A DNA stretch of 64,000 nucleotides from Balanoglossus misakiensis (GCA_040954595.2 CM082592.2:6489531-6553530); one strand, 5' to 3'; positions 8,947 to 45,700 are shown, counted from the stretch's first letter. Translations and numbers: made by a program. The notes: a model not told the origin generated them from the sequence alone.

Positions 8947-9432
8947 CTATAACTTTTTACTTGCCATTCTCTCGTACATGGGCATGCAATCGTCTGCAAA
9001 CTGTACCAGCTTTTCTGGGAGGTTTGTCAAGTCGATATCGGTGTCAGACGATGGGTGGAAACGAGAACTGTCTATTGCCTTTTTGAAAAACAGCTCAGTG
9101 TATTCGGAGGTCTTCATGGAAAGTGGGAAATGGTCTATGTTTCCCGGTTCCCACTTGACAAACGATTCACAGAATGGCAGCCCTGTCGCTTTACAGTGCT
9201 TCTCTAAAGTCTCCCTGGGCGAATTGGCCAAATCTGCCGAGTCGACGACGATTGGGGGCGCTTCCATTTCCTCGGTGACATATCCATACAGGTTGAACAA
9301 ACTTTCGCAAATAAATATGTAAATGCACCAAGAATGGCTGTATACATTATGGCATTGGCATCGTGGTGTTATTTATAGCAACTCGGAACAATGAAAGTAT
9401 CAACGCCCTGGGTTGCGAATAAGAAAAGTGTT
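8947..9432 (-). pseudogene. 5'-truncated pseudogene of the sulfotransferase-fold gene
   Basis: 8947-9300 is almost identical to 14107-14460. 9300-9432 still aligns (NTFLIRNP) but has frameshifts and stops. No N-terminal WSHARSRST region is recognisable upstream. Confidence 0.85.
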
Positions 9433-14106: not shown

Positions 14107-14931
14107 CTATAGCTTTTTGCTTGCCATTCTCTCGTACATGGGCATGCAATCGTCTGCAAACTGTACCAGCTTCTCCGGGAGGTTTGTCAAGTCGATGTCG
14201 GTGTCAGACGATGGGTGGAAACAAGAACTGTCTATTGCCTTTTTGAAAAACAGCTTAGTGTATTCGGAGGTCTTCATGGAAAGTGGGAAATGGTCTATGT
14301 TTCCCGGTTCCCACTTGACAAACGATTCACAGAATGGCAGCCCTGTCGCTTTACAGTACTTCTCTAAAGTCTCCCTGGGCGAATTGGCCAAATCTGCCGA
14401 GTCAACGACGATTGGGGGCGCTTCCAATTCCTCGGTGACATATCTATACAGGTTGAATAAACTTTCGTAACCAGATGTGTTAATGCACCACGAAATGGCT
14501 GCATCCGTGTCCACTGACGGCGTGGACATCGTGATGTTATTAGTACATGTAATCCGGAACGAGGAAAGTATGGAGGCCCTGGGATTGCGAATAAGGAAAG
14601 TGTTGACGTACCCCCCTGGAATGTACTGGTAGCGACCCCTGCCCCCCGAAAAGTTATCCTTTACGAAAACGGCCGTTTTCCCCGGGAATGGTTGTTCCAG
14701 CATCTTCTGCACGTCCACATACTTGTACCCAGGTACGGGTGGTTCTTGGCGCAAAGTCGTCTGGATGTGTCGTTCTTCGCCGACGCAGTAGGCCATGACA
14801 AAAGGTTCGTGAATGACATGGATGTTTTTGTCCGACGCGATTGCGAGTTCAAACGCGGTTGATCTCGACCTGGCGTGCGACCACAGGATCACACGAGTTT
14901 GCGGTTGCCATTCGGTTGAACTTGCCGCCAT
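14107..14931 (-). CDS. P-loop sulfotransferase-fold protein (family often annotated 'branched-chain-amino-acid aminotransferase-like' / Sulfotransfer_5), intronless CDS
   Basis: MAASSTEWQPQTRVILWSHARSRSTAFE...HEPF...FVKD...TFLIRNP...PIVVDSADL..P..TL..YC...GLPF....W. The [P/A]RSxST 5'-PSB-like loop and LIRNP 3'-PB-like motif are typical of the sulfotransferase fold. First in-frame ATG is at 14931. Confidence 0.85.
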   Translation of the reverse strand: MAASSTEWQPQTRVILWSHARSRSTAFELAIASDKNIHVIHEPFVMAYCVGEERHIQTTLRQEPPVPGYKYVDVQKMLEQPFPGKTAVFVKDNFSGGRGRYQYIPGGYVNTFLIRNPRASILSSFRITCTNNITMSTPSVDTDAAISWCINTSGYESLFNLYRYVTEELEAPPIVVDSADLANSPRETLEKYCKATGLPFCESFVKWEPGNIDHFPLSMKTSEYTKLFFKKAIDSSCFHPSSDTDIDLTNLPEKLVQFADDCMPMYERMASKKL

Positions 14932-15295
14932 GTTTTGGGTCACAGCGTCGGGGTAGCTGAGAAATAAACCGAGGAATCTTATCTCCCTAGGCGTAACGTG
15001 TTGTCGCGACCCTGACCCATTTGTCTGGCTCACTCGGGGAGTTCACCGGCCTTGTCCTCGTTTGCCAGTATAATCATGTCTGTCATTGGCTAAATTACAT
15101 GTATCATGGAGGTACCTCCATGCATGTATCAAGTGTTCTAATTCGTGGGGATATATTTCTCTCGTGTGAGTATTCTAAAATTAAAAAAAAAATACTTATC
15201 GTTTGCAATGTATAATATGCGGGTAGGGCAAGGGGGTGTATTGCACATATGTATATAGGTAATAATAGTATTCATCGTGCGACGGTAGCTCTGCG

Positions 15296-15904: not shown

Positions 15905-16726
15905 TTATAGCTTTTTAATGATCATTTCCTCGTACAGCGGAGTGTATTCGTCAATACAGTGTCTCAGTTTTTCGGGCAATTCTGACAAATTCACGTCTGA
16001 GTCAGGCGAGGGCTGGAAACAAGAACTCTTCAAGGCCCTGTCGTAAAACAATTTTGCAAACTCGGAAGACTTCATAAAATCGGGGAAATGGTCGATGTTT
16101 CCCGCTTCCCAGTTCAGAAAGGTTTCTTTGAATGGCAACCCCGTCAGCTTGCAGTACTTCTGTAGCGTGTCTTCGGGCGAATTGGCCAAATCCTGTGAGT
16201 CTATCACGATAGCCGGCTGCTGGAGTACCTCGGTTACGTACTTGTATAGTTCAAAGATGGGCGCCATGTCGCAGAGATCCACGCAAAACTCAACCAAAGT
16301 ATCTGGGTCGACCCCGCGCTGCCTATGCTTAGTTTGGACGCATCTGAACGACGAAAGCACCGTCGCTTTCGGATTGCGGACCATAAATGTGTGTATGTAC
16401 CCGCGTGGCATATATTTGTAACGATCTCTGCCTCCCAAACACTTGGCGCTGTCTTTGACGAATATGGCCACTTTTCCAGGGTAGTCGTTTTCCAGCATCG
16501 CCTGCATGTCCCTATATCGATAACCTGGCAACGGGGGAGTGGTGATGGATTCCACGTGACACAGTCGTTCCTCTCCTTCATAGTAAGCCATCGCGAATGG
16601 TTCGTGGACGACATGGATATTCTTATCAGAAGCTATGGCTAGCTCCAGCACCGTTGATCTTGATCTTGGGTGGACCCACAGAATAACGCGAGTTGACGGC
16701 AGAAATATAGCCACATTTTCAGACAT
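15905..16726 (-). CDS. Second intact sulfotransferase-fold protein, 273 aa, intronless CDS
   Basis: TRVILWVHPRSRSTVLE...HEPF...FVKD...FMVRNP...VIDSQDLANSP...YC..TGLPF...W; paralogue of 14107-14931. Confidence 0.87.
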   Translation of the reverse strand: MSENVAIFLPSTRVILWVHPRSRSTVLELAIASDKNIHVVHEPFAMAYYEGEERLCHVESITTPPLPGYRYRDMQAMLENDYPGKVAIFVKDSAKCLGGRDRYKYMPRGYIHTFMVRNPKATVLSSFRCVQTKHRQRGVDPDTLVEFCVDLCDMAPIFELYKYVTEVLQQPAIVIDSQDLANSPEDTLQKYCKLTGLPFKETFLNWEAGNIDHFPDFMKSSEFAKLFYDRALKSSCFQPSPDSDVNLSELPEKLRHCIDEYTPLYEEMIIKKL

Positions 16727-17570
16727 TTTAGAGTCTCAGATTGAGTGGCTGGTGTGGGGCACTTTACAAGCTGTCAAGGCAAGATGATTTTAGCTTGGGG
16801 CTGGTCGGTTGTCGGTGGGTGATTGATTTAGGCACCCATTTCCACATGACCAAAAGGTCACATTACCTTCTCCTCCCCAAGCCCCCCCCCCTCCAATGAT
16901 CACCTCCTCTATGCGATAACAATGTTTAAACATTACTGCATAAAATGAATGCACCATATGTTAAAAGTTCTCGCACAGTTGCAAGACCTTATTTGGGCCA
17001 TTAGGTTTTACGGATGAGATGATGTTTTATACGTACCACAGTATACATATAGCCATAAATTACCAGTAGTAGTATACGATGAATGAAATTGGTATTTGGG
17101 GTGAATGACGCCGTTCTGTACTTCTATGGGCAGATCAACTTCACAAAGGTCATTAAGTAGATTTATGGTCTACATAGTACATTTACTCAATAAATGTGTC
17201 GTAACAACATTCTTTTTCGACCACTCGAAAGAAGTAAACAACATCAGCAAGGTATAAGTAGTTACTCCCCGCAGTCACGTACTCCACAAACCGTGAGTAA
17301 AGTACAACCTATAGAGGGCGCACAGAGTTTGACCCCAAGGTTTGACCTCATTCACCTTATTTGACCCCTGTCATGTGATCGCCGAACACCGGCGACCGTG
17401 TGTGTGTGGTACCGAAGTCCAGAAACTTATAGGTTATCAATGTTATTTGGCATGATCGGCCAATGCGGTCGATTATATGTCCTCTCGCACCTTTAGCGGG
17501 TAAATTGGTAGACTTTGTTCGATTCACCGGATGCAGTAGAAGTTTTTCGCTTTCTGGACACTGGTACAAA

Positions 17571-20500
17571 ATGGCGTCGCCCCCCTCCAAGCAGTTGAAG
17601 CGTGTTGGGATTCTCGGCGGAACACATGGGAACGAGCTATCGGGCGTGTACCTTGTGAAGAAGTGGCTGAAGGACAAGACGCCGGTGACGAGAAGCACGT
17701 TTGAAACCACGGTTTGCATCAGTAATCCCCGCGCAGTGGAAAAATGTGTTCGCTACATAGATACTGATCTGAACCGAGTGTTCACGGAGGAAAATCTAAG
17801 GTGAGAGGAACTTGGAACATCTGGCAAACTAGGATCTGCCATACCATAAACTGCGTAATGAGCTGTGTATGTTTGCACGTGATGTGATGCGTGAATTGTA
17901 TCATAGACACTGAGGTCGACTGCAGTGATCTGTGGTGATACCTCCTTGGGTGAATGAAGGTGGGCTAACTTTTTAAAGTGGACGACCCAAAGCTGTCGTA
18001 CGCCCATGGTAACTTTGAGCAACGTCCCTCTATTGAGATCCTTGTGGTAGTGTGTCCACTAGACCATAGGGAGTGCAAACACAACCGCTTTTCAGACCTA
18101 ATGTATGGAAGTTAGAAGTACATCCGAATTGGCATACTCATTGCAACATCTACATAATTATATTATTTTAATCGGAATGTGAGAATTGTGTTAGACCTGC
18201 ACCAGGTCTGATCCAGCAGACTGCTGCAGGTCTGTGTCCATATCGCTGCACATGACCTGTTGGTCAGACAGGCACCAGACCTGGTGAACTTTTTGTTGTG
18301 GGTGAGACTGTTTGATCAATTTGCTCATGGATAATTAATTTTCTGTTTCTTGCATAGGTCGGAGTCGACAAGTAATTTGTATGAATTAAATCGAGGCAAA
18401 GAGCTGAACGCAATCTTTGGACCAAAACACTCCACAGAAGCCTATGACTTTCTCATGGACTTCCATAACACAACGTCCAACATGCTTAATTCTCTCATGA
18501 TTCACGACACGAGAGACCCGCTAGTGCTGCAGTTAGTGCACTATGTCTCAGGAAACCTAAAACAATTCTCAAACTTTGTCTTTATAACGGGGAACGCGTA
18601 TCAAACGACCCGAACTGTCGCCACGCATGGGTTAGGTAAGTGTTGATCACCTCAGGCCTGACAGGTTGATACGCATGCTGTTGTAGGTTTTCTGTAGAGT
18701 AGTTAGCTGGTAGAGCGTCACATTGCAAATAATATTTGTAGACACTCTTACACGTAGTTTTGTGTTCATGAAAGATGTTTTGCTGTGCTACCCACCGCTT
18801 CCCAGAGTCGCAATCAAACTCTGTCATTACCCCCCTTGCTCCCTAACATTGCCATTTGAGGTTCCTTGACATGGGAATGAAAACACACACAATGGTCCAA
18901 AGATTTCATTCAGTTCTGGATTTGTGTCCGTTGATATTTCTGTGTATGAAAGACATCGTGAATCAAGTGATTATATTAATGCAGTCACTGAATGTAATGG
19001 TAAACAAAAATCCAAATATAATACAATAACAGAAGTTGGTCTTTACTTTGTGTAGATTGGCCAAAGATTCCAACATTTATGAACTGACTCGAATTAGTGA
19101 ACTGAATGAAATGTTTGGACCTGGAGCCACCGAACGGTATGATGTCTTGATTGACATGCATAATACGACAGCTGATGTGCGAGACTGCCTGATCTTCAGC
19201 GGCAGCCCCGATGAAGTTGATCTGCACCTGGTCAGCTACATGGCTGAGAGAGCGGGACAGGAGAGGCTGAAAGCCCTTTTAGTGCCTTGTAGTGGAGCTG
19301 TTTGCTCTTTAGGCAAACACATCCTTGGTGAGTCTAGACACAAGTTGTGTGGGGAGTTGTTACACTGGGATGTCGTGCCTTAGTCATTGGCGTGATATCG
19401 CAGTGTAACAACTCCCATGCGACTGTGAGTCTAGATGCTAAGAACACTGGGCTAGCCCATCAAGAAGTATTTCTCAGCAAGTCTTTTGAAAACTGTTGCT
19501 TAAGAATATCAGCTTTGGAGTATACTGGCGTATAATTAATAAATATGGAAATTGTTTTAATACTGCAGATATTAATAAAAACTTGGGGGTGTGTACATTT
19601 ACATGAAAAAGTTGTATGTATTATGTCCCCTCATTGGTCCAAAGATTGTCTTCAGATCTCTATCTACCGTCCAATCATACACTGGCTTTAGTGTCCACTC
19701 AATCTCATCATCTTCAGAGTTCATCACAAAGTTTTCAAAGGCAAATTTCCATAAGATCACTCATTCCTTAAAGGTGTGAGTGTGCGTGTTTTATTTCTAT
19801 AGTAACAAGAGTGTTCAGATCGGACACTGAGCTGTAAGTGAATCATGGAACCAAAATCATAAATTTATTCTTGTTCTTGTTGCTCACCTAGGCCAGAGAC
19901 GGAGGGTGTGGCCACTTCCAATATCCCCTATGAAATAGCAATTGCCAGGGAACTAGACGCAGTCTTTGGACCAATGGGAGAAAGCAGTCGCACTGATTTC
20001 ATGTTAGACTTGCACAACACCACGTCGTGCATGAGTAACTGCGTAATTTTAGAGCGCGAGGACGACCTCCTCACAACGCACATGGCCAGCTATTTGCTGC
20101 AGTTTTTGCCGTGCCCGCTCTTCCTGAAACATAACAAGCCCGAGGAAGGTTTCCGGCTAGTGGCAACTGTTAATCTCGCAAAGCATGGCATCAGTAAGTG
20201 TCTGGTGAGCTTGGTGTGGGGCGTCCCAGTGTTTAATTGCTACATGTCCGCGCCCCCTGGATATGTTAAAGGTCATAGGTTAAAGGGTCACAGTTCATAG
20301 GACAAGCAGTGTATGCACAGGGGTGCGTTCGACGAACGAAGCGTTCGGTAACGTTCGGAAACGTTTTCATGTCGAACGATCTTTTGTCATTGTTTTTCGC
20401 GAACGTTTTGTAACAATGGAAGGCGTAAGACGGAGGTGACTCGCGGCGAACAACTCATTAATTCAAAATGGCGGACCTGTAAGCCGAAGTACGACTCGCA

Positions 20501-22247
20501 GGGCATATTTTCGAAGAAGTAGCAGAATATTTGTCGATTTAGGTAGTGATAGTTTTACCAAGCCGAAGCTTGTATTTTTTCTCAATCAATAAACCAATTC
20601 ACATGGATTGTGCCGCTACTGTCTTGTGTAAAACGGTTTAAAAGTGGTATGCACTTCCGGAATCATGTCCTTGTATGTGCACCGGGACGTTCTTGCTGAC
20701 GGCCGCTGTCTCTGAAAAGCCAAAGGTCATTGACGGCGCCCTCTTGTGAAAGGCAAGCTTATCGTTCGACGAAGTACAAAAGCGCCCGGCGCAAGCATTC
20801 ACAAAACGCTTTGTGCGTCGAACGCACCCCAGTTGTCCACCTGCACCAAGCACAACTCTGACTCATGCTTTTGTTGAGATGCCTACTCGGTACATCTTGA
20901 CCAGCTTGCACTCTGACCTCTGACCTCATGAAAAGGTTACTGGTATTTAAAGCTTTTGGTGTTTTTTTTCTCTATAAATAAAAATGTGAAGTCGGTTGGT
21001 GCACGTTGTCAAAATTTTTACCGATTCTGTACTGACCTTTTTATTTTTACCAGCTTCATCATATTTCTTTCTGTTTTGCCATCTGATCAAAGGTATCGAA
21101 TTAGGTCCACAAGCTCACGGCACTCTGGTAGCCGAGGTCTACCAGAGAATGGAGGAAATTACCCATCATGCACTGGATTTCATTGAGAAGTTCAACAAAG
21201 GTGAAGTGAAGTACCCAGCATACCTCAGCACACATTTATCTCAAAAGTTATAGATAGAAAGTCCTCGTAACTAATGGATTAAATATGCTCTGTGTGTGTG
21301 TATGTCAGTGCGTTTGTCCACTCAGAGCCAAAACTCGGACATCCTGGACTGATTTCTTTATTTTGATATACAATCCAATATGGCCACTCGGCGGCCATTT
21401 TGTATCCACAGCCATTATTCATTCCTACCTGAACATGTTCCATTCAAGCTCAAGGTATAATGAGTGTACCATGGCGTACATTGTATTTATGCACATGAAT
21501 TTGTGTCACAATATGATCCAATATGGCTGCTGGGCGGCCATTTTCTTACAAGTTTGTCATCATAATCTTGAATTTCAGGCCATGAATTTGCCCCGTGTAC
21601 CATAGAAGCTCATCGGATACTCGAGAAAGTGGATTTTCCACGTGATGAGGATGGAGAGTTGACTGCCATGATTCATCCAAAGTTTCAGGTCACTAGACTT
21701 TCCCTTTCAACTTTATTTCTCACAGATATTGAAGAATACACCCTTTTCAAAAGTCTAGCGCCCTCAAGCGAGACCAATTGGGAAATCCCCTTGATGTGAT
21801 TGGTCGATTTCCCCATTGGCCTCGCTTTGAGTTCAAATTCATGATGGCTGCATGAGGATGTTTATGTTGAATTTTATGCAGATAATTTTTTGATGTACTT
21901 GCAATGCTGTAAACCCAGATTATTTTGTTCTTTGAAATCTTATCGCAAGAATATTTTCATTTGTGTCACTTTGTGTGTCATTCTTCAAATTATATTCATC
22001 TTGTTCCATCTGCTGTCAGTGTGAAGTAAAAAGCTTTTCCTCTTGTTTCTAGAACAAAGACTGGCACCCCTTGAATCCGGGTGATCCCATCTTCTTGACC
22101 TTCCAAGGGGAAACCGTCACCTACAAAGGCGACAAGACCGTCTACCCGGCATTCATTAACGAGGCTTCGTACTACGAGAAAGGCCTCGCATTCTGGGCCA
22201 TGGAGAAGGTGCAACTCACTGCTCCGAAGTTGAAACTCCAAGAATAA
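17571..22247 (+). CDS. ASPA: Aspartoacylase / aminoacylase-3 family Zn hydrolase with three alternative exon-2 variants
   Basis: Exon 1 17571-17800 ([30 protein letters not shown]); alternative exon 2a 18358-18635, 2b 19056-19327, 2c 19892-20193 (each with DxHNTT); exon 3 21093-21200 (IELGPQ); exon 4 21579-21688 ([17 protein letters not shown]); exon 5 22053-22247 ([12 protein letters not shown]...[13 protein letters not shown]). All introns are GT-AG. Confidence 0.93.
18358..18635 (+). other. ASPA alternative exon 2a (278 nt)
   Basis: tgcatag| ... |gtaagt; encodes [16 protein letters not shown]...DFHNTTSNM...[13 protein letters not shown]. Confidence 0.9.
18893..18917 (+). promoter_or_regulatory. 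Intronic antisense element A (candidate splicing RNA-pairing element)
   Basis: TGGTCCAAAGATTTCATTCAGTTCT is complementary to exon 2b 19099-19121 (22 of 23 Watson-Crick) and to exon 2a 18400-18424 (22 Watson-Crick + 1 GU of 25). Confidence 0.7.
19056..19327 (+). other. ASPA alternative exon 2b (272 nt)
   Basis: tgtgtag| ... |gtgagt; encodes [16 protein letters not shown]...DMHNTTADV...[12 protein letters not shown]. Confidence 0.88.
19332..19436 (+). other. Long RNA hairpin directly behind the exon 2b donor site
   Basis: GGGAGTTGTTACACTG pairs perfectly with CAGTGTAACAACTCCC; the stem extends in both directions with several G-U pairs. Confidence 0.7.
19630..19659 (+). promoter_or_regulatory. 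Intronic antisense element B (candidate splicing RNA-pairing element)
   Basis: CTCATTGGTCCAAAGATTGTCTTCAGATCT is complementary to exon 2c 19960-19978 (19 contiguous pairs, 2 GU) and to exon 2a 18400-18424 (22 Watson-Crick + 1 GU of 25). Confidence 0.7.
19892..20193 (+). other. ASPA alternative exon 2c (302 nt)
   Basis: cacctag| ... |gtaagt; encodes [19 protein letters not shown]...DLHNTTSCM...[13 protein letters not shown]. Confidence 0.9.
20321..20829. mobile_element. MITE, PIF/Harbinger-like
   Basis: Terminal inverted repeats GGGTGCGTTCGACG / CGTCGAACGCACCC, flanked by the 3-bp duplication CAG (20318-20320, 20830-20832); no credible coding capacity. Confidence 0.8.
21767..21827. repeat. 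Short imperfect inverted repeat in ASPA intron 4
   Basis: AAGCGAGACCAATTGGGAAATC ... GATTTCCCCATTGGCCTCGCTT. Confidence 0.55.
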
Positions 22248-38726: not shown

Positions 38727-39884
38727 TTATTACGGGCCCAAGCCAAGCCAGGCTTGGGCCCGTATTGGTTTCGTTGGGGTTTTTCTTTCTTTCTTTATTC
38801 TTGGTTCATTTCTTTCGCGCTCTAGATCTCAGACACCGCTGCAGGTACAGTTCTCAAACTTGCTACAGTGGTCAAGGTCAATGAGTAGATGTGCAGTGAC
38901 TTGTGAATACTTAATTAGTCACGTGACATGGCGGCCATATTGGATTTTCTGAAAAAATGCAAATCTCAGATCTCAGAAACTACAAGTCAGATCGACTTCA
39001 GATTTGGCGTGCTGGTAGTATACCCTCTGCCCATCATTTTTGTAATTGGATATTTTGCTGTCAATGTTGCAGTTTTTTTGCTACAGTTGTTTTTCTGAAA
39101 TCTGGTCAAAATTTCAAAAATCTTCTTCTCCAGAACCGGCGATAACCGAGTCACGCCGTTTGGGTTATGTGGTCACCTAACTGATGTCTATCAAGTTTGC
39201 GAAGATCATTGTGATTGGTCAAAGATTATGGCGGCCATATTGAATTTTCGAAAAACCATAGTGAAACTTCAAAAATCTTCTCCTCCAGAACGGGCGATAA
39301 CCGAGTCACAAGATTTGGTGTGTGTGGTCATTAAATGGATGTCTATCAAGTTTGCGAAGGGGAATGTGATTGGTTGAAGATTATGGCGGCCATATTGGAT
39401 TTTGTGAAAAACGATTAAAAAGTAAAAATTCCTTTTCTAGCCTAAAAATTGATAGCACAGAAATTCTTTTTATGGATATGAATCATCATATGACAAGAAT
39501 AAGCTATAAATATTTTTGTAATTTTGCAATGACCTTTGACCTACTTTTGACGAATCATTTTTCTGCATATCTAATTCCAGGCTAACCAATAGGGCTATAA
39601 GTTTGGTTTTTGATGTATGTGGATTTGTATGTGATCAAAACATTTTGCTACTTTTCATGACCCCTTTGACCTCTGGTGACCTCATTAAATATGCGCATAC
39701 CTAATTAATGATGAACCAATAGACCTAGAGGTTTTGTTTTTGTTATACATGGACCAGTATGGGGTCAAAATATTTTGCCCAAATGTTGGGTGACCTCGGG
39801 TGACCTTTGACCTACTTAACACTATATTAGCATCAGATCAGATAATAGAGCTTGGGCCCGGACAATGCTGCTTGCAGCTTTAAT
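38727..39884 (+). mobile_element. Non-autonomous Helentron-associated (HINE/DINE-1-like) element
   Basis: 5' hairpin CGGGCCCAAGC..GCTTGGGCCCG, then a TCTT tract, internal tandem subrepeats (about 39120-39410), 3' sub-terminal repeat GCTTGGGCCCG and terminal hairpin GCTGCTTGCAGC; T-rich flanks, no clear target duplication. Confidence 0.7.
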
Positions 39885-42184
39885 TTAATTTTAAAATTAT
39901 GACTTGGATAACTGTGTTTAAACAAACATTTATTCATATGGGGCTTTTTGACGAGAGATTTTGCTTAAACGTTCAACTGGGATTTATGTCAGAACCTATT
40001 CCATCATCGTAACAGTTTAATACCCGTGAATATCACCCCTCCTTATCTGCACACATCTTGATGATTTGTGTAGATATTAAAAGTCATAATTTAATGTTTA
40101 TGGTGAACATTTTTATAAGAGTGGCCCCTTTCATGTTTGTTTATCATCACGAGGGTAGAAGATAATTAAAAAGTAGACTTTTAAAGGCAGTTTTTTTAAT
40201 GCAGTTAAACTTTATTGGTCAGTATGTGGGAAATAACGGTAGAATAATATGAGTGGTTTACATTTAGGCCTTTATAAAACTAGTGCTAGTGCTAGTGTTA
40301 GCATTATTACCCACAGTACGATAGTAGTATATCACCCATGAGGTAATTTGGCAGATGTCTTGAAATAACAAGGCAGATATAAATTAATAAGAAAGAACTC
40401 ATATCGTGATAGACATGTTTTTCAGTTTCTATCCTCCCAGGCCGCATTGACATGCTGACCTTGTCTGCGACTCCCTGTATATGTTTATTTGTTAAGTTAA
40501 TCCTCGCCTCGATTAATCTTCATTTCATTTGTCTTTCCAGGGTGAGGATGTCCCGACTTAATACCAACGCTAACAAGACATAAAGACAAGTCTGCGAACA
40601 ACTGACGGTCGCACCTCTCCCCGTCATTTACATCTTCTGTTTTCAACTGCTAGTAATAAACTACAACTCTACAAGTACTATAATCAGCAATGACAATTCC
40701 CGCCGAAAACAGACATGGTGTGGATTCATCTTTCACAGATCATTTTAGTAAAAAAAAATGTTACATTTATTCAATGAGAGAATAGTGGGAAAGGGTTTTA
40801 GGATATTAAATTTTTAACGTAAAATTTTCATCAAACAAAAATGTCTGATGGATATAAAAGATATTTTATTATAAGACTCGCAAAATGAATTGCGACATAC
40901 AGTATCGTTCTTGTAAACCCGTGACAAGAAAGGTCCATTAAAAACTTTCTTTTGGGCATGAGCTGAAGGCCTGTTTGGCCTATTGAGGATAAATAGTGCA
41001 ATGCACACTTGCTCTGAAGTGATAGATAAGTGTTGGAAAATTACAATTACTTTGAGATGGATAGCCGTGTCTTTTTGTCAACGGCATGAGACAATTACCG
41101 AACAGTGTAAATTTCCGAACGCAGATATGCCCCTAAGTGGCGTATTCCACGCACACAGACTAAAGTAAAGCGATGCAGGGATTAAATACACACAGGATGA
41201 TGCATTACCGGCGCATGTGTGTTCCAAATTTGGCAGTGGATCAGCTACATGGGCTGCGGCGATCTGCTCGTGTTGCGCGAGGCGGCCAAGAGTGTTCAGA
41301 ACGCTTGAAAAATGATGTAATTGCCCTATAAATCATAAAGTGAGTTCGCATCCAAGACGGGCGTGATCAATCTTACTGGTTTGTTATCTCAGAGAGAACT
41401 AAGATTGAGAGGCAGTCGAGCCAGGGTTGGATTTTGTTTTAACATGATTTACAGATTTTCACATTGTTTTCTCTGTTTATCAACACCTTTGATGCATTTC
41501 ACGTGGGCACTCCTCACCCAGATGGGTGCAATCGTGTCCCAATTAACGGCCACAGTTTATCCAATGTGATAAAAAGTGTTTGTGTGTGTGTGTGGGAGGG
41601 GGGAGGGACAAAGTAGGCCGGAAAAGTCACAGAGAAACATTGTGGATTCTTATCTGGAGTCTTTCAACATTTCAGGTGATAAATCTTGGAATCCGACACT
41701 TAATGACAATTTATATGCAGCTGGCCTCCCTCAGAGTTGATTCTAGTAGAAATTATGGGGGTTGAGTTTGGAGTTTCTCTCTGAGATTGGAGTGATCGCT
41801 GAGGGCTTCAGTTGGCCAGGTTAAGCCTCCTTTATTTAGTGTAAGTAATTCTACGGCAGCGGTGTGTGGTGCAGAGCAGGTCACGAAATCGTTTTCAAAA
41901 ACAAGATTCCATTAGTGCCGCATGAGGGGACCTTATTGAATTCATGAAAGTCAAAACATATTGAATTCATGCAAGTCAAATCAGTCATGACCTATATTGT
42001 ACACACAAAAATGATAGTCAGGGTATATGCAGTACAGGGTTCCGTCATACAGATTGTTGGGGATTCATAGATTTCAGGTGACTGCAATAAAAAATATCCG
42101 AATTCTCTGTATCAGGATAAATTTTACACACATTGTGCTAATGTAAATTTTTTAATGAATGAAAACAGTCAAATTTAGAGTTAA

Positions 42185-42787
42185 AGCCACAGTATTTCTC
42201 GTAGGGGCAAAATTTTGTTTGAAACGGCATCTATAATTTCTAAAAGTAGATGATAATTGATACTGAATCGAACAGTCATCATCCCCAGCTCTGCTGATAA
42301 ACTCATACAATTTACAATATAACGAGTGAAGAATGACTTTCTGTCCGGACAGAAAGTCACGTGAGTCAGGCTAATGTTGACACACGTGACTAGTGCGCAT
42401 GCGCACTCAAATGTGAATCTATGCGGAAGAGGTTTGGTCGCCCCAAATCAAGCGACTCAGCGAAGAAATGCGCACTAATTCGGCGAAATTTTGGGAAGAT
42501 AACTTTATGGGAGAAATCAGTCGATGGAACCAGATCAAATCCGAAAATGGTCTGACCATCAAAATGTCAAAGTGGCACGTTTGCTGATCGACATGTACAA
42601 CATTTCCGTTGTAAACAAACCCGCGCATCATTTCAAGTGTTACGGGCAATATTTTCGGCTTGCATGTAGCTACAATTGCCCTAACCTTTCTTACATCTTC
42701 ATTATATAGTATTCCATGATGGATGTACTGGAAAAACGGGCTTTTTTCGATGATGAAAAATGGATGCACACGAGAAATACTGGGGCT
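42185..42787. mobile_element. MITE with TTAA target duplication (Kolobok-like)
   Basis: TTAA|AGCCACAGTATTTCTCGT ... ACGAGAAATACTGGGGCT|TTAA; 18-bp TIR with one mismatch. Confidence 0.8.
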
Positions 42788-45700
42788 TTAACTTATATGT
42801 TAAGTTTACTGTTATATTGGTTTCTGTAGTGTAATGTTTCAGCACACGTTTTTTTATTGTTTCATGTGTATACCATAAGAACAAGAAGCTGTAGTTTTGC
42901 ACACCCAAAGATAACGTGCAGTGATCATCATTGAAGTTCCAGCTGCAGAACCTTTGACCTTTTCAACTGAAATGCATTTTGTTGAGCGTTGTTTTAGACG
43001 CAGGGGTATATCGTGAAATAGGTAACGCACCTTTAGTGTGAAAACAATTTTTAAAAACCTTGATATGACACCGTGTACTTTTGACATTTATCATGGTTGC
43101 CTTTGTCAAGTACATGATGAATAGCACGGAAAGTTTTCATGTTTCTGTGGAAACGGAAGTCGTGCATTTCACTTAAACAGCAAAGCCATATTGATGAATG
43201 TCTGTAATACATACAGGAAACCTAAATAATCCGGTTAGAAAATCAAGATGGCACTGATATGGTTTTTGAATAGGTTATATGGTGGGCACAAACTTGCCGA
43301 AGGAAGGGAACGGAATTTAAAGCTGATGTTCTATTCTGTATTTTTAAGAGACATTTTAACAGCATGGACACATTCAGTCGGTCCATGGATCATGAATTTG
43401 CAGGAAGCTAGTCGATGGACAGATAGACAGGAGTTCAGTTTGACTTTGGACTTATGACATGCAGATCGAAGCATCATTTACACTTAGTATAGACATCAAT
43501 ACATTCCACTCACCACACAAGTAGTGATTCACATACCTTGACAAAAATCGTCAGGGATATAAAACATAAAATACAGATTAACTCACAGCTGCAAGGATCT
43601 TGTCATTTTCCTCAGAGGGTAAAGGTAAAAAATCATGTGTATTTTATAAATTGCAGTTCACACTACAGGGAATTTCAAGAAACATTTTCTATCTGTGGCA
43701 GTGGATTTTAATGCATTGACGAGTATTTTTCACTTGTCGGCAGCAACATCAAAAACCGTAATAATTTTGCTGGCTGCCTTTAAAAAATCTTCGGGTGTTG
43801 TTGATTTATGGGTGTGTGACACTATACTGTCGTGATAATAACAATTGTTTCGGAATCCACGGTAATTTAGTCATCAGGGGCTATTAAATTGTGATATATG
43901 TCACTACTTGTGGTCTGAAATATTAAAAATGTCTCGATTTATAGCAAGCAATAACACTACAGGGAAGCGCTGCAGGCTCATATATACAGCATGGTGTGTG
44001 TGATGAAATTTTTCCCTGCGGAGAGACCGAGTACCAATATAATACAACACCAGTGTGGTGTATGTGCGAGTCGTGGTCTTTCACTTGGTCTTGACCTTGG
44101 ATAAGAGTTGGTACGTTTCTTTCAAATAGGCCACTTTTCATGACCTCTACATGACCCTACATCCTCGTACTTCCGTTGGTATGAATCCATCAGTTTTATT
44201 TTTAAAAACACTCTACAAAATTGCAGCTCTTGTCAGTGCAGTACGTGCTGAGAATTTCAAACGATATTTCTTGTACCAAAATGTTGAATTTGGACAACCC
44301 TTTACCACCGGAAGTACAGGGATGTGAGGTCAGAGGGTCGGTGTGGTTGTTAGATGTTTCCTCCTCATCACTCCCATCAGTACTTGACACGCGTGACTCC
44401 CTGTTTACTTGGTATATTGATAGGTGCACTCTTGCTGTCCAAAAGTAAATAAGGAAATTATATTCTTAAAGTGTCTTGTAACATTTTTTTAGAATCTGAA
44501 GTGTTAAATGTTGTTTCAATAGAAGTATTTTAACCATTTGGTTCTTGTGAATTTGTCTTATTTGGGGGTTCAGACTGGACAGTTTACGACCGAAGTGGGG
44601 CTAGGTCGTATAAGGCTTCATATAAAGAATTGTAATATTCCTAGTTTTTACTTGCGATGCTAGTCCATGGTAACCATGGCAGTGCAATTGCCAACTTACG
44701 GATGCTGTCAGATAAATCGGCAAAACTCTGCCCTCAGGCAGTCAATTCAGATGGAACATTAAACGTTTGCAAATGTTCCCCTCTAACAAAGGAGATTTAA
44801 TTGATAATTTTAGATAACACTTTCAAGGAAAATATATATCATTAAACTTTCAACGAAAACCAGGTAAACATATGTCTCTCTGTGGCAGTCAAGCAAACTT
44901 TTTAATACTTCGTATTGTTCCCTCGAGAACAAAATGCATGAAACCTTAGCGATTAAAACGCAGCTCTATAAATTATATGCATTGGCTTCAAAGCCTCGAG
45001 GTTTTGAAAGTTTTGTATATGTAGATGTTCTAGTTCTGGGAATACCACCATGAGCGTTTAGATCTTTTACGGTTCGTGATTTTTTTTTCTTAAAACAAAT
45101 CCTTGACTACAGACCAAACAGTATCTAACCATAAAATACGGAAAAGATAAAGATGGCCCCAGTATTTTTAATAACCATATTGCCCCTTTGTGTATTGACA
45201 TCGCGCCGTGTGTCGGCACGTCTGTATGTATTGCTTTCTATATAGAAAATTCTCCGGGGATGTAAAACTAGCCAAGCATAATTAAGATAGAATACGAATT
45301 TTGATTATGAAGACTTTATTAGTTTCGGTTCACTCGTCGATGGAAACAGATTGTGTAACAAATATTAGCAGCGAATATCACTTGTGGAGAATTGATTTTT
45401 AAACAGTATGGCAGTTTTTATTGTTGGGAAGAAATACTGATTGTATGATGTACTTATCAGATTCGCACAATATTTATTGTCAGTATCTGATGATGTCGTA
45501 GTTGAATTTTTAGATTGGAATTAGAATGGGGTTTTAAATATTCGTATTTTCCATTTTATAGACAATCTCGATGGGCTAAGCTAAGGCTTACATAATAATT
45601 AGATGGCACCGGAACAATATATGTCATTTGCATAGGATCTAACGAAATTACAAAGTAAATTTAATTATTTTTCTTGCGTGTGGGTGTAGGATTAAAATGT

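Follow-up and report, generated by a model that had tools for sequence, protein, structure and literature searches.

Two intronic antisense elements complementary to three alternative exons of a Balanoglossus misakiensis aspartoacylase-family gene: a candidate competing exon-masking structure

The 64,000-nt stretch of Balanoglossus misakiensis DNA analysed here (the window) contains, on the + strand, a gene of the aspartoacylase family (Pfam PF24827) that hosts a cluster of three alternative exons. The coding part of exon 1 (17463..17800, with an ATG at 17571) encodes the HGNE zinc-ligand motif and matches PF24827 with an E value of 1.9e-20. It is followed on the same strand by the alternative exons 2a (18358..18635, 278 nt), 2b (19056..19327, 272 nt) and 2c (19892..20193, 302 nt), the constitutive exons 3 (21093..21200) and 4 (21579..21688), and the coding part of exon 5 up to the stop codon (22053..22247). 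Exon 3 encodes the sequence GIELGPQ, in which the Glu aligns with the human catalytic E178, and every intron of the gene is of the GT-AG type. An upstream in-frame ATG at 17463 adds 36 residues at the N-terminus (17463-17570), as is also seen in isoforms X1-X3 of Ptychodera flava, and N-terminal extensions of a similar kind are present in Glandiceps and Saccoglossus; the 36-residue extension may be a targeting presequence. Upstream of the gene, and divergent from it, tandem sulfotransferase-like open frames were observed on the minus strand (8947-9372, 14107-15042 and 15905-16735), and the two such frames that were scanned both match PF19798.

The closest proteins were found to be the RefSeq isoforms X1, X2 and X3 of P. 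flava (XP_070572358.1 and its isoforms), which derive from one contig and include orthologues, one each, of 2c, 2a and 2b. Exon 2a, the best conserved of the three, is orthologous to X2 (80% identity) and to the corresponding exons of Glandiceps (71%) and Saccoglossus (72%); 2b is orthologous to X3 (51%; tree support 100/99), and 2c to X1 (70%; 100/100). Among themselves, the three exons share 32-35% protein identity. Their lengths are each 2 modulo 3, so the frame is kept by single inclusion only: transcripts with one of the exons encode full proteins of 306, 304 or 314 residues, and the five aberrant combinations (zero, double or triple inclusion) reach a first stop at codons 108-185. This frame logic agrees with the P. 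flava isoforms, which are RefSeq gene models in which single-exon use is known from annotation, and together they suggest that the tandem homologous exons are used one at a time. The aspartoacylase of the crinoid Anneissia (P0044) is annotated as an isoform X4. Two protein matches in two stretches (P0121 and P0122) proved to be near-identical repeats in fish gene models, unrelated to the exon cluster.

The AstE_AspA catalytic domain is present, with the zinc ligands H21, E24 and H116 and the catalytic E178 (human numbering); the roles of these four residues in ASPA, and the link between R168 and aspartate selectivity, are described in the available portion of a review (PMC10998430). The alternative exon holds the third zinc ligand (H116) together with the R168-bearing segment. 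Exon 2a retains a Y-x-T-x-R segment that aligns to Y164/R168 of human ASPA, and in 2b and 2c this stretch aligns with gaps and with no equivalent of R168. The encoded enzymes belong to the same fold family as aspartoacylase and aminoacylase-3 (PF24827, PF04952; human ASPA, PDB 2O4H), with an E value of 1e-99 for the 2a isoform of P. flava, but, unlike in human ASPA, the segment with H116 and R168 is exchangeable here and the R168 motif is clear in 2a only. Since the switched exon contains both a zinc ligand and the substrate-selecting segment, exon choice likely yields enzymes that differ in their substrates.

Two intronic segments on the + strand, element A (18890..18936, core 18893-18917) in intron 2a-2b and element B (19626..19681, core 19632-19659) in intron 2b-2c, are antisense homologues of a single coding block, YE...FGP, that the alternative exons share. 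The corresponding sense targets lie in 2a (18380..18424, YE...ELNAIFGP), which can take either A or B and is a candidate docking site, in 2b (19078..19122, YE...ELNEMFGP), the preferred partner of A, and in 2c (19929..19981, the equivalent YE... block), the partner of B. An initial annotation of this DNA had proposed both motifs as reverse complements of one homologous block and had given them a size of 25-30 nt; their presence and antisense relationship were borne out, but each was found to extend over about 48 nt (18890-18936 for A, 19632-19681 for B), in register back to the TAT-GAA (YE) codons. The two elements match each other at 34/47 positions. The pairing counts of the initial annotation were reproduced for A:2b (22/23 in register), for A:2a (22 Watson-Crick pairs and one GU over 25) and for B:2c (19 contiguous pairs with two GU, or 20 if a third GU is counted), and for B:2a the recount gave 23 Watson-Crick pairs and one GU over 26, compared with the 22 and one GU of 25 originally reported. 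Once A and B are masked, the two introns are indeed unrelated, both in local (330/500) and in global (123/300) comparison. A search of the + strand of the 64-kb window for the element core within one edit returned four matches: A, B, one near 39200, and the first bases of exon 2b (19056..19069, + strand), which resemble the core with one base missing. This last stretch is like a third, shorter copy of the core, and could pair weakly with the 2a and 2c targets (-18.6 and -17.9).

The complementarity between the two elements and the exons is real and well beyond chance. When the antisense alignment of each intron was compared with 2000 dinucleotide shuffles of that intron, intron 2a-2b was equalled in 0/2000 shuffles against 2a, 0/2000 against 2b and 36/2000 against 2c, and intron 2b-2c in 0/2000 against 2a, 3/2000 against 2c and 81/2000 against 2b. 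Against the four constitutive exons, 90-1998 of the 2000 shuffles of these introns were as good, and for the four other introns of the gene, aligned to all seven exons, this was so for 9-200 of 200. The lowest of these values, an antisense match of intron 1 to 2a (9/200), is weak and falls on another part of 2a, and was dropped. Seven spaced inverted repeats were counted in the whole window (arms within 1.5 kb, blastn score of at least 28), four of which are A:2a, A:2b, B:2a and B:2c; two others lie at 42179-42793 and 44152-44332, with arms of 24 and 30 nt. Among 7370 background tiles from outside the gene, one equalled B on the 2c target (-35.6 vs -35.1). Considered by itself, B:2c is therefore the least secure of the four pairing claims, convincing only jointly with the others.

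Full-length duplex energies were calculated as -49.2, -38.4 and -35.9 kcal/mol for A with 2b, 2a and 2c, and as -42.4, -42.3 and -33.3 kcal/mol for B with 2a, 2c and 2b, respectively. Pairing of each element with its third exon (A:2c and B:2b) is thus also predicted, at energies weaker than those of the four main helices. A favours 2b by about 11 kcal/mol and is not a balanced switch, whereas B is balanced between 2a and 2c. The 3′ extension of A (18918-18936, + strand) is specific to 2b, with an equally good fit in 13/2868 background windows, and is a candidate toehold; the extension of B fits 2b and 2a (13 and 49 of 2868 windows equally good). At its ends, B is 2c-specific on the 5′ side and fits 2a best on the 3′ side. 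The 3′ overhang of A prefers 2b (-13.2 vs -6.7 and -5.1 kcal/mol) and the 5′ overhang of B prefers 2c (-6.7 vs -0.4), and these preferences fall at the positions from which an element would need a toehold to leave 2a. The helices begin 22-37 nt into the exon and stop 205-220 nt before the donor, and no splice signal is covered.

In the model that we favour, and to which we give about an even chance of being correct, A and B would constitute a competing exon-masking structure, folding onto the alternative exons in the pre-mRNA such that a bound exon is skipped. Two elements would mask two exons at once, and one exon of the three would be left free. By default, each element would occupy the next exon downstream (A:2b and B:2c), leaving 2a free. 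The 2a block would hold one element at a time: A on 2a would silence 2a and release 2b (A:2a and B:2c), and B on 2a would loop out the 2a donor and all of 2b, releasing 2c (B:2a and A:2b). The partner-specific overhangs (3′ of A for 2b, 5′ of B for 2c) could serve as toeholds for exchange during transcription, with B as a balanced switch between 2a and 2c, and with 2b predicted to be the rarest isoform. Repression itself would proceed, we infer, through blocked exon definition or through the looping out of one splice site, and nonsense-mediated decay would remove transcripts that contain none or several of the alternative exons.

The three-state scheme, earlier likened to musical chairs, was found to be geometrically feasible, in that all of its states are nested or side by side and can form, but its equilibrium strongly favours one state. 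Equilibrium folding of 18300-20200, which at 1.9 kb is unreliable at this level of detail, gave probabilities of 0.997 for A:2b, 0.999 for B:2a and 0.000 for the other helices, and placed the states that free 2a and 2b 8.5 and 18.4 kcal/mol, respectively, above the favoured A:2b and B:2a state. Taken at face value, the predicted fold speaks against the best-conserved exon, 2a, being the default. Folding of growing prefixes produced A:2a first, then A:2b, and then A:2b with B:2a, so timing could matter. In the minimum-energy structures, the splice sites of the free exon were not more open than the others.

An alternative reading, which we consider unlikely, is that the helices form and are selected but merely tune isoform ratios, for example because A:2b and a hairpin over the 2b donor (described below) keep 2b rare, or because the helices bring splice sites together; exclusivity would then be due to splice-site competition, proteins and nonsense-mediated decay. 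It gains from the strong bias of A toward 2b and the dominance of one state at equilibrium, as well as from the premature stop that follows every double, triple or zero inclusion. Precedents are provided by the R2R5 helix of ATE1 (PMC7797038) and the ISRE1/2 helix of SCN9A (PMC12772994), which, in the text available from these sources, shift ratios and not exclusivity. Ratio tuning leaves unexplained, however, why there are two elements for three exons, both able to bind the 2a site, and why B has equal energy for 2a and 2c. Frameshift and decay could also give exclusivity with no RNA structure at all, whether as a fallback or as the principal cause, given that 278, 272 and 302 nt are not multiples of three and that the aberrant combinations stop early.

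A second alternative is that A and B are functionless relics of a short inverted exon copy, made for example by template switching, which was duplicated once and is now decaying or being refreshed by gene conversion; this appears distinctly unlikely. The elements are 48-nt, in-register antisense homologues whose reverse complements, when translated, still resemble the exon peptide, their extensions are matched at only about 55-65%, and palindromes and insertions abound in the genome, all of which a relic would account for. Indeed, because A and B are homologous, in inverted orientation and in register over 48 nt, to part of an exon, they likely began, as judged from the sequence, as an inverted duplication of such a segment. 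The initial annotation had set selection for dual pairing against a decaying inverted duplicate; the chimerism on which it relied was upheld, but the two are not alternatives, as the elements do resemble old inverted exon copies. A recent copy should match one exon evenly, and neither element does. A matches 2b, 2c and 2a at 35/47, 32/46 and 31/47 positions, and B matches 2a, 2c and 2b at 33/48, 31/48 and 30/48, so neither is a copy of one exon, although matches to several exons are inflated because the FGP and YE residues are kept for protein reasons. In decay simulations that started from one exon, the match to a second exon was as good as observed in 1876, 176, 5331, 627 and 4 of 200000 runs, depending on the scenario, which places the chimeric cores beyond what a randomly decayed single-exon copy would give.

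The relic reading is further opposed by the age of the cluster and by the codons of the target. An exon-2 tree was built from 18 peptides, comprising 15 of 120 proteins hand-picked for taxonomic spread and the three exons of the window. In this tree, 2a joins the Glandiceps and Saccoglossus exons (P0001-P0004, P0006) with support of 100/99, and a grouping made up only of the six cluster exons is rejected (p-AU 0.0014), although the 2b and 2c branches are long. The triplication therefore looks old, and the Glandiceps and Saccoglossus genomes may hold unannotated 2b and 2c exons or may have lost them. Outside P. flava, no 2b- or 2c-like proteins were found in searches that are limited by clustering and annotation, and a search of metagenomes for orthologous loci gave 188 pattern matches, none of them confirmed. 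The elements themselves appear to be old. Outside A and B the introns share no similarity, and synonymous changes beyond the target are close to saturation; neutral copies as old as the cluster should therefore have become unrecognisable, like the remaining intron sequence, which disfavours an old relic.

Target codons, moreover, are conserved across the exon copies. In the block, which was defined after the match had been seen, codons for residues shared by 2a, 2b and 2c are identical in 4/7 columns, compared with 1/11 outside it (one-sided p 0.047); counted pairwise, the figures are 16/23 and 21/67 (p 0.0015), the pairs not being independent. From the core Glu to the Pro codon, all four differences between 2a and 2c are A/G, and two of them lie opposite a U in both elements. 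A also tracks the Glu codon of 2b, at a position where Ala is encoded by P. flava 2b and by the 2a and 2c of the window, and B retains the base of the Ala type. The Glu change in 2b and A is thus one apparent coupled change, which recent copying of A from 2b would explain equally well. The A/B pairing is probably under selection, to the extent that small, post hoc tests internal to one genome can indicate. A contig of the same species (X1) carries 11 substitutions over 18327-19121, none of them in A, in the 2a target or in the 2b target up to 19121, and five over 19177-19731, none in B; as the chance of seeing no variant was 0.34 and 0.52, this single sample has no statistical power. The comparison covered 40 of 192 substitutions and 12 of 57 indels; both contig counts above are complete, and 4 of 10 substitutions were covered for the stretch with the 2c target. 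The runs found with this sequence are three DNA runs from a single sample and study. A single-base insertion was placed, by inference, in the interval 19592-19699 and could lie within B.

ADAR acts on editing-complementary duplexes of about 20 bp or more, for which an imperfect exon-intron duplex is the general form. The predicted duplexes here are imperfect, contain 34-40 pairs and are of at least that length, and at two sites where 2a has an A, the genomic base in 2c is G. Both observations would suit a third reading, in which A and B serve as editing-complementary sequences, pairing with the exons to give ADAR substrates so that the exon is recoded or marked, with any effect on splicing being secondary. 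This is very improbable: the sole exon A opposite a C inside the cores is at a silent Leu position in 2c (19955), and editing would not require a pair of elements in competition for a single site. Outside the cores, A-C mismatches occur at the helix-edge sites 18427 and 19125, and editing is also possible at A-U pairs. Steric hindrance by a branch point near the donor was rejected, since the introns, 557, 420 and 564 nt long, have AG-free zones measuring 51, 20 and 53 nt, as was incompatibility of U12 or mixed spliceosomes, the donors being ordinary GT(A/G)AGT.

The masking model has its closest proven counterpart in human ATE1, where, in the accessible text (PMC7797038), the R3 element in the intron separating exon 7a from exon 7b pairs with R1 or R4, represses one exon and hinders one 3′ splice site, loss of R3 gives double exons, and the mechanism was proven by mutagenesis. 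Competing pairing of this kind thus has a precedent in its logic, and the targets here are coding, unlike R1 and R4 of ATE1 as described there. The two systems share an element in the intervening intron whose complement occurs at two paralogous sites, one for each exon, and in both the elements number one fewer than the exons, ATE1 having two exons and one element and the present gene three and two. In ATE1, R1 and R4 are intronic and lie on polypyrimidine tracts, whereas here the coding targets are 22-58 nt inside the exons. The elements here, unlike those of ATE1, are themselves paralogous inverted exon copies, and are known from sequence alone. By analogy the locus resembles ATE1, but, with coding targets that lie away from the splice sites, it is not assigned to an ATE1-type class.

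In Dscam1, according to the portions available of PMC8791459, PMC8042237, PMC7430681 and PMC4691838, a docking site in a constitutive intron is served by one selector per variable exon, and the protein hrp36 is involved. As in its exon 6, one site (here the 2a target) would be competed for by elements upstream of downstream exons, and the choice would fall on the exon that directly follows the loop, a geometry that the modelled A:2a and B:2a helices fit. In contrast to Dscam, the first variable exon itself contains the docking-like site, and exons would be silenced by default through RNA pairing to their own sequence. At a score of at least 28 and within 1.5 kb, no inverted repeat connects the cluster with intron 1 or intron 2c-3 in the manner of a constitutive-intron dock. 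In place of one selector per exon, the three exons have two elements between them, and neither intron 1 nor the sequence after 2c was found to contain one for the target block. Pairings that touch exons are mentioned for Dscam systems too, in the same partial texts (PMC8791459, PMC8042237).

RNA structures involving or controlling one alternative exon are also described for SCN8A, in which an intron:exon 5b pairing has RIC-seq support (PMC12772994), and for chicken beta-tropomyosin, with a hairpin at the mutually exclusive exon 6B (PMC9198270). The passages available from these two sources describe one pairing at one exon and no exchange of partners among several exons, whereas here there are two elements and three exons. 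A published duplication model (PMC6071210) derives competing pairings from an ancestral hairpin, one arm of which was duplicated in tandem; the arms in the text available are intronic, and here one arm is coding sequence and both arms appear duplicated. In the literature found, there was nothing on the splicing of this gene or on two elements that mask three exons, and supplements to the Dscam and ATE1 papers may hold similar cases.

A fuller version of the masking model is put forward more tentatively, at somewhat below an even chance: an n-minus-1 selector made of RNA only, in which the downstream exons would be silenced by inverted copies in the preceding introns and the coding sequence of 2a would be the shared dock. 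Partners would be exchanged through toeholds, so selecting one of three active-site segments of the enzyme, the unit would derive from a tandem-duplicated exon-plus-anti-exon hairpin, and synonymous codons would have been constrained since before the enteropneust families split. If correct, a three-way mutually exclusive exon choice would be encoded by RNA pairing alone, through the masking of exon bodies, with coding sequence as a docking site, and one gene would give rise to three enzymes via exon selection. The origin would be simple, an exon being duplicated along with its own antisense copy, and synonymous codons would be under a second constraint. The unit spans 1.9 kb, which would put a full series of compensatory mutants within reach and make it directly testable whether competing structures are under kinetic or thermodynamic control.

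Structure prediction places a long hairpin, some 50 bp in length, across the 2b donor (19324..19441, + strand; -73.2 kcal/mol, z -10.3, 0/200). It is possibly a second silencer of 2b, or else a palindromic insertion. An Rfam scan returned four matches, all below the gathering score, and no family for the hairpin. A second GTGAGT lies at 19425, inside the hairpin region, and a T>C substitution at 19376 in run X1 turns a G-U pair of the hairpin into G-C. Read depth near 19324-19441 is about 2.5-fold, so the region may be a low-copy repeat. The inverted repeat at 20317-20833 was rejected as a regulator, as it is a high-copy insertion that is absent in runs X1 and X2; the insertion is MITE-like, being polymorphic, covered at very high read depth and bounded by terminal inverted repeats of 29 nt.
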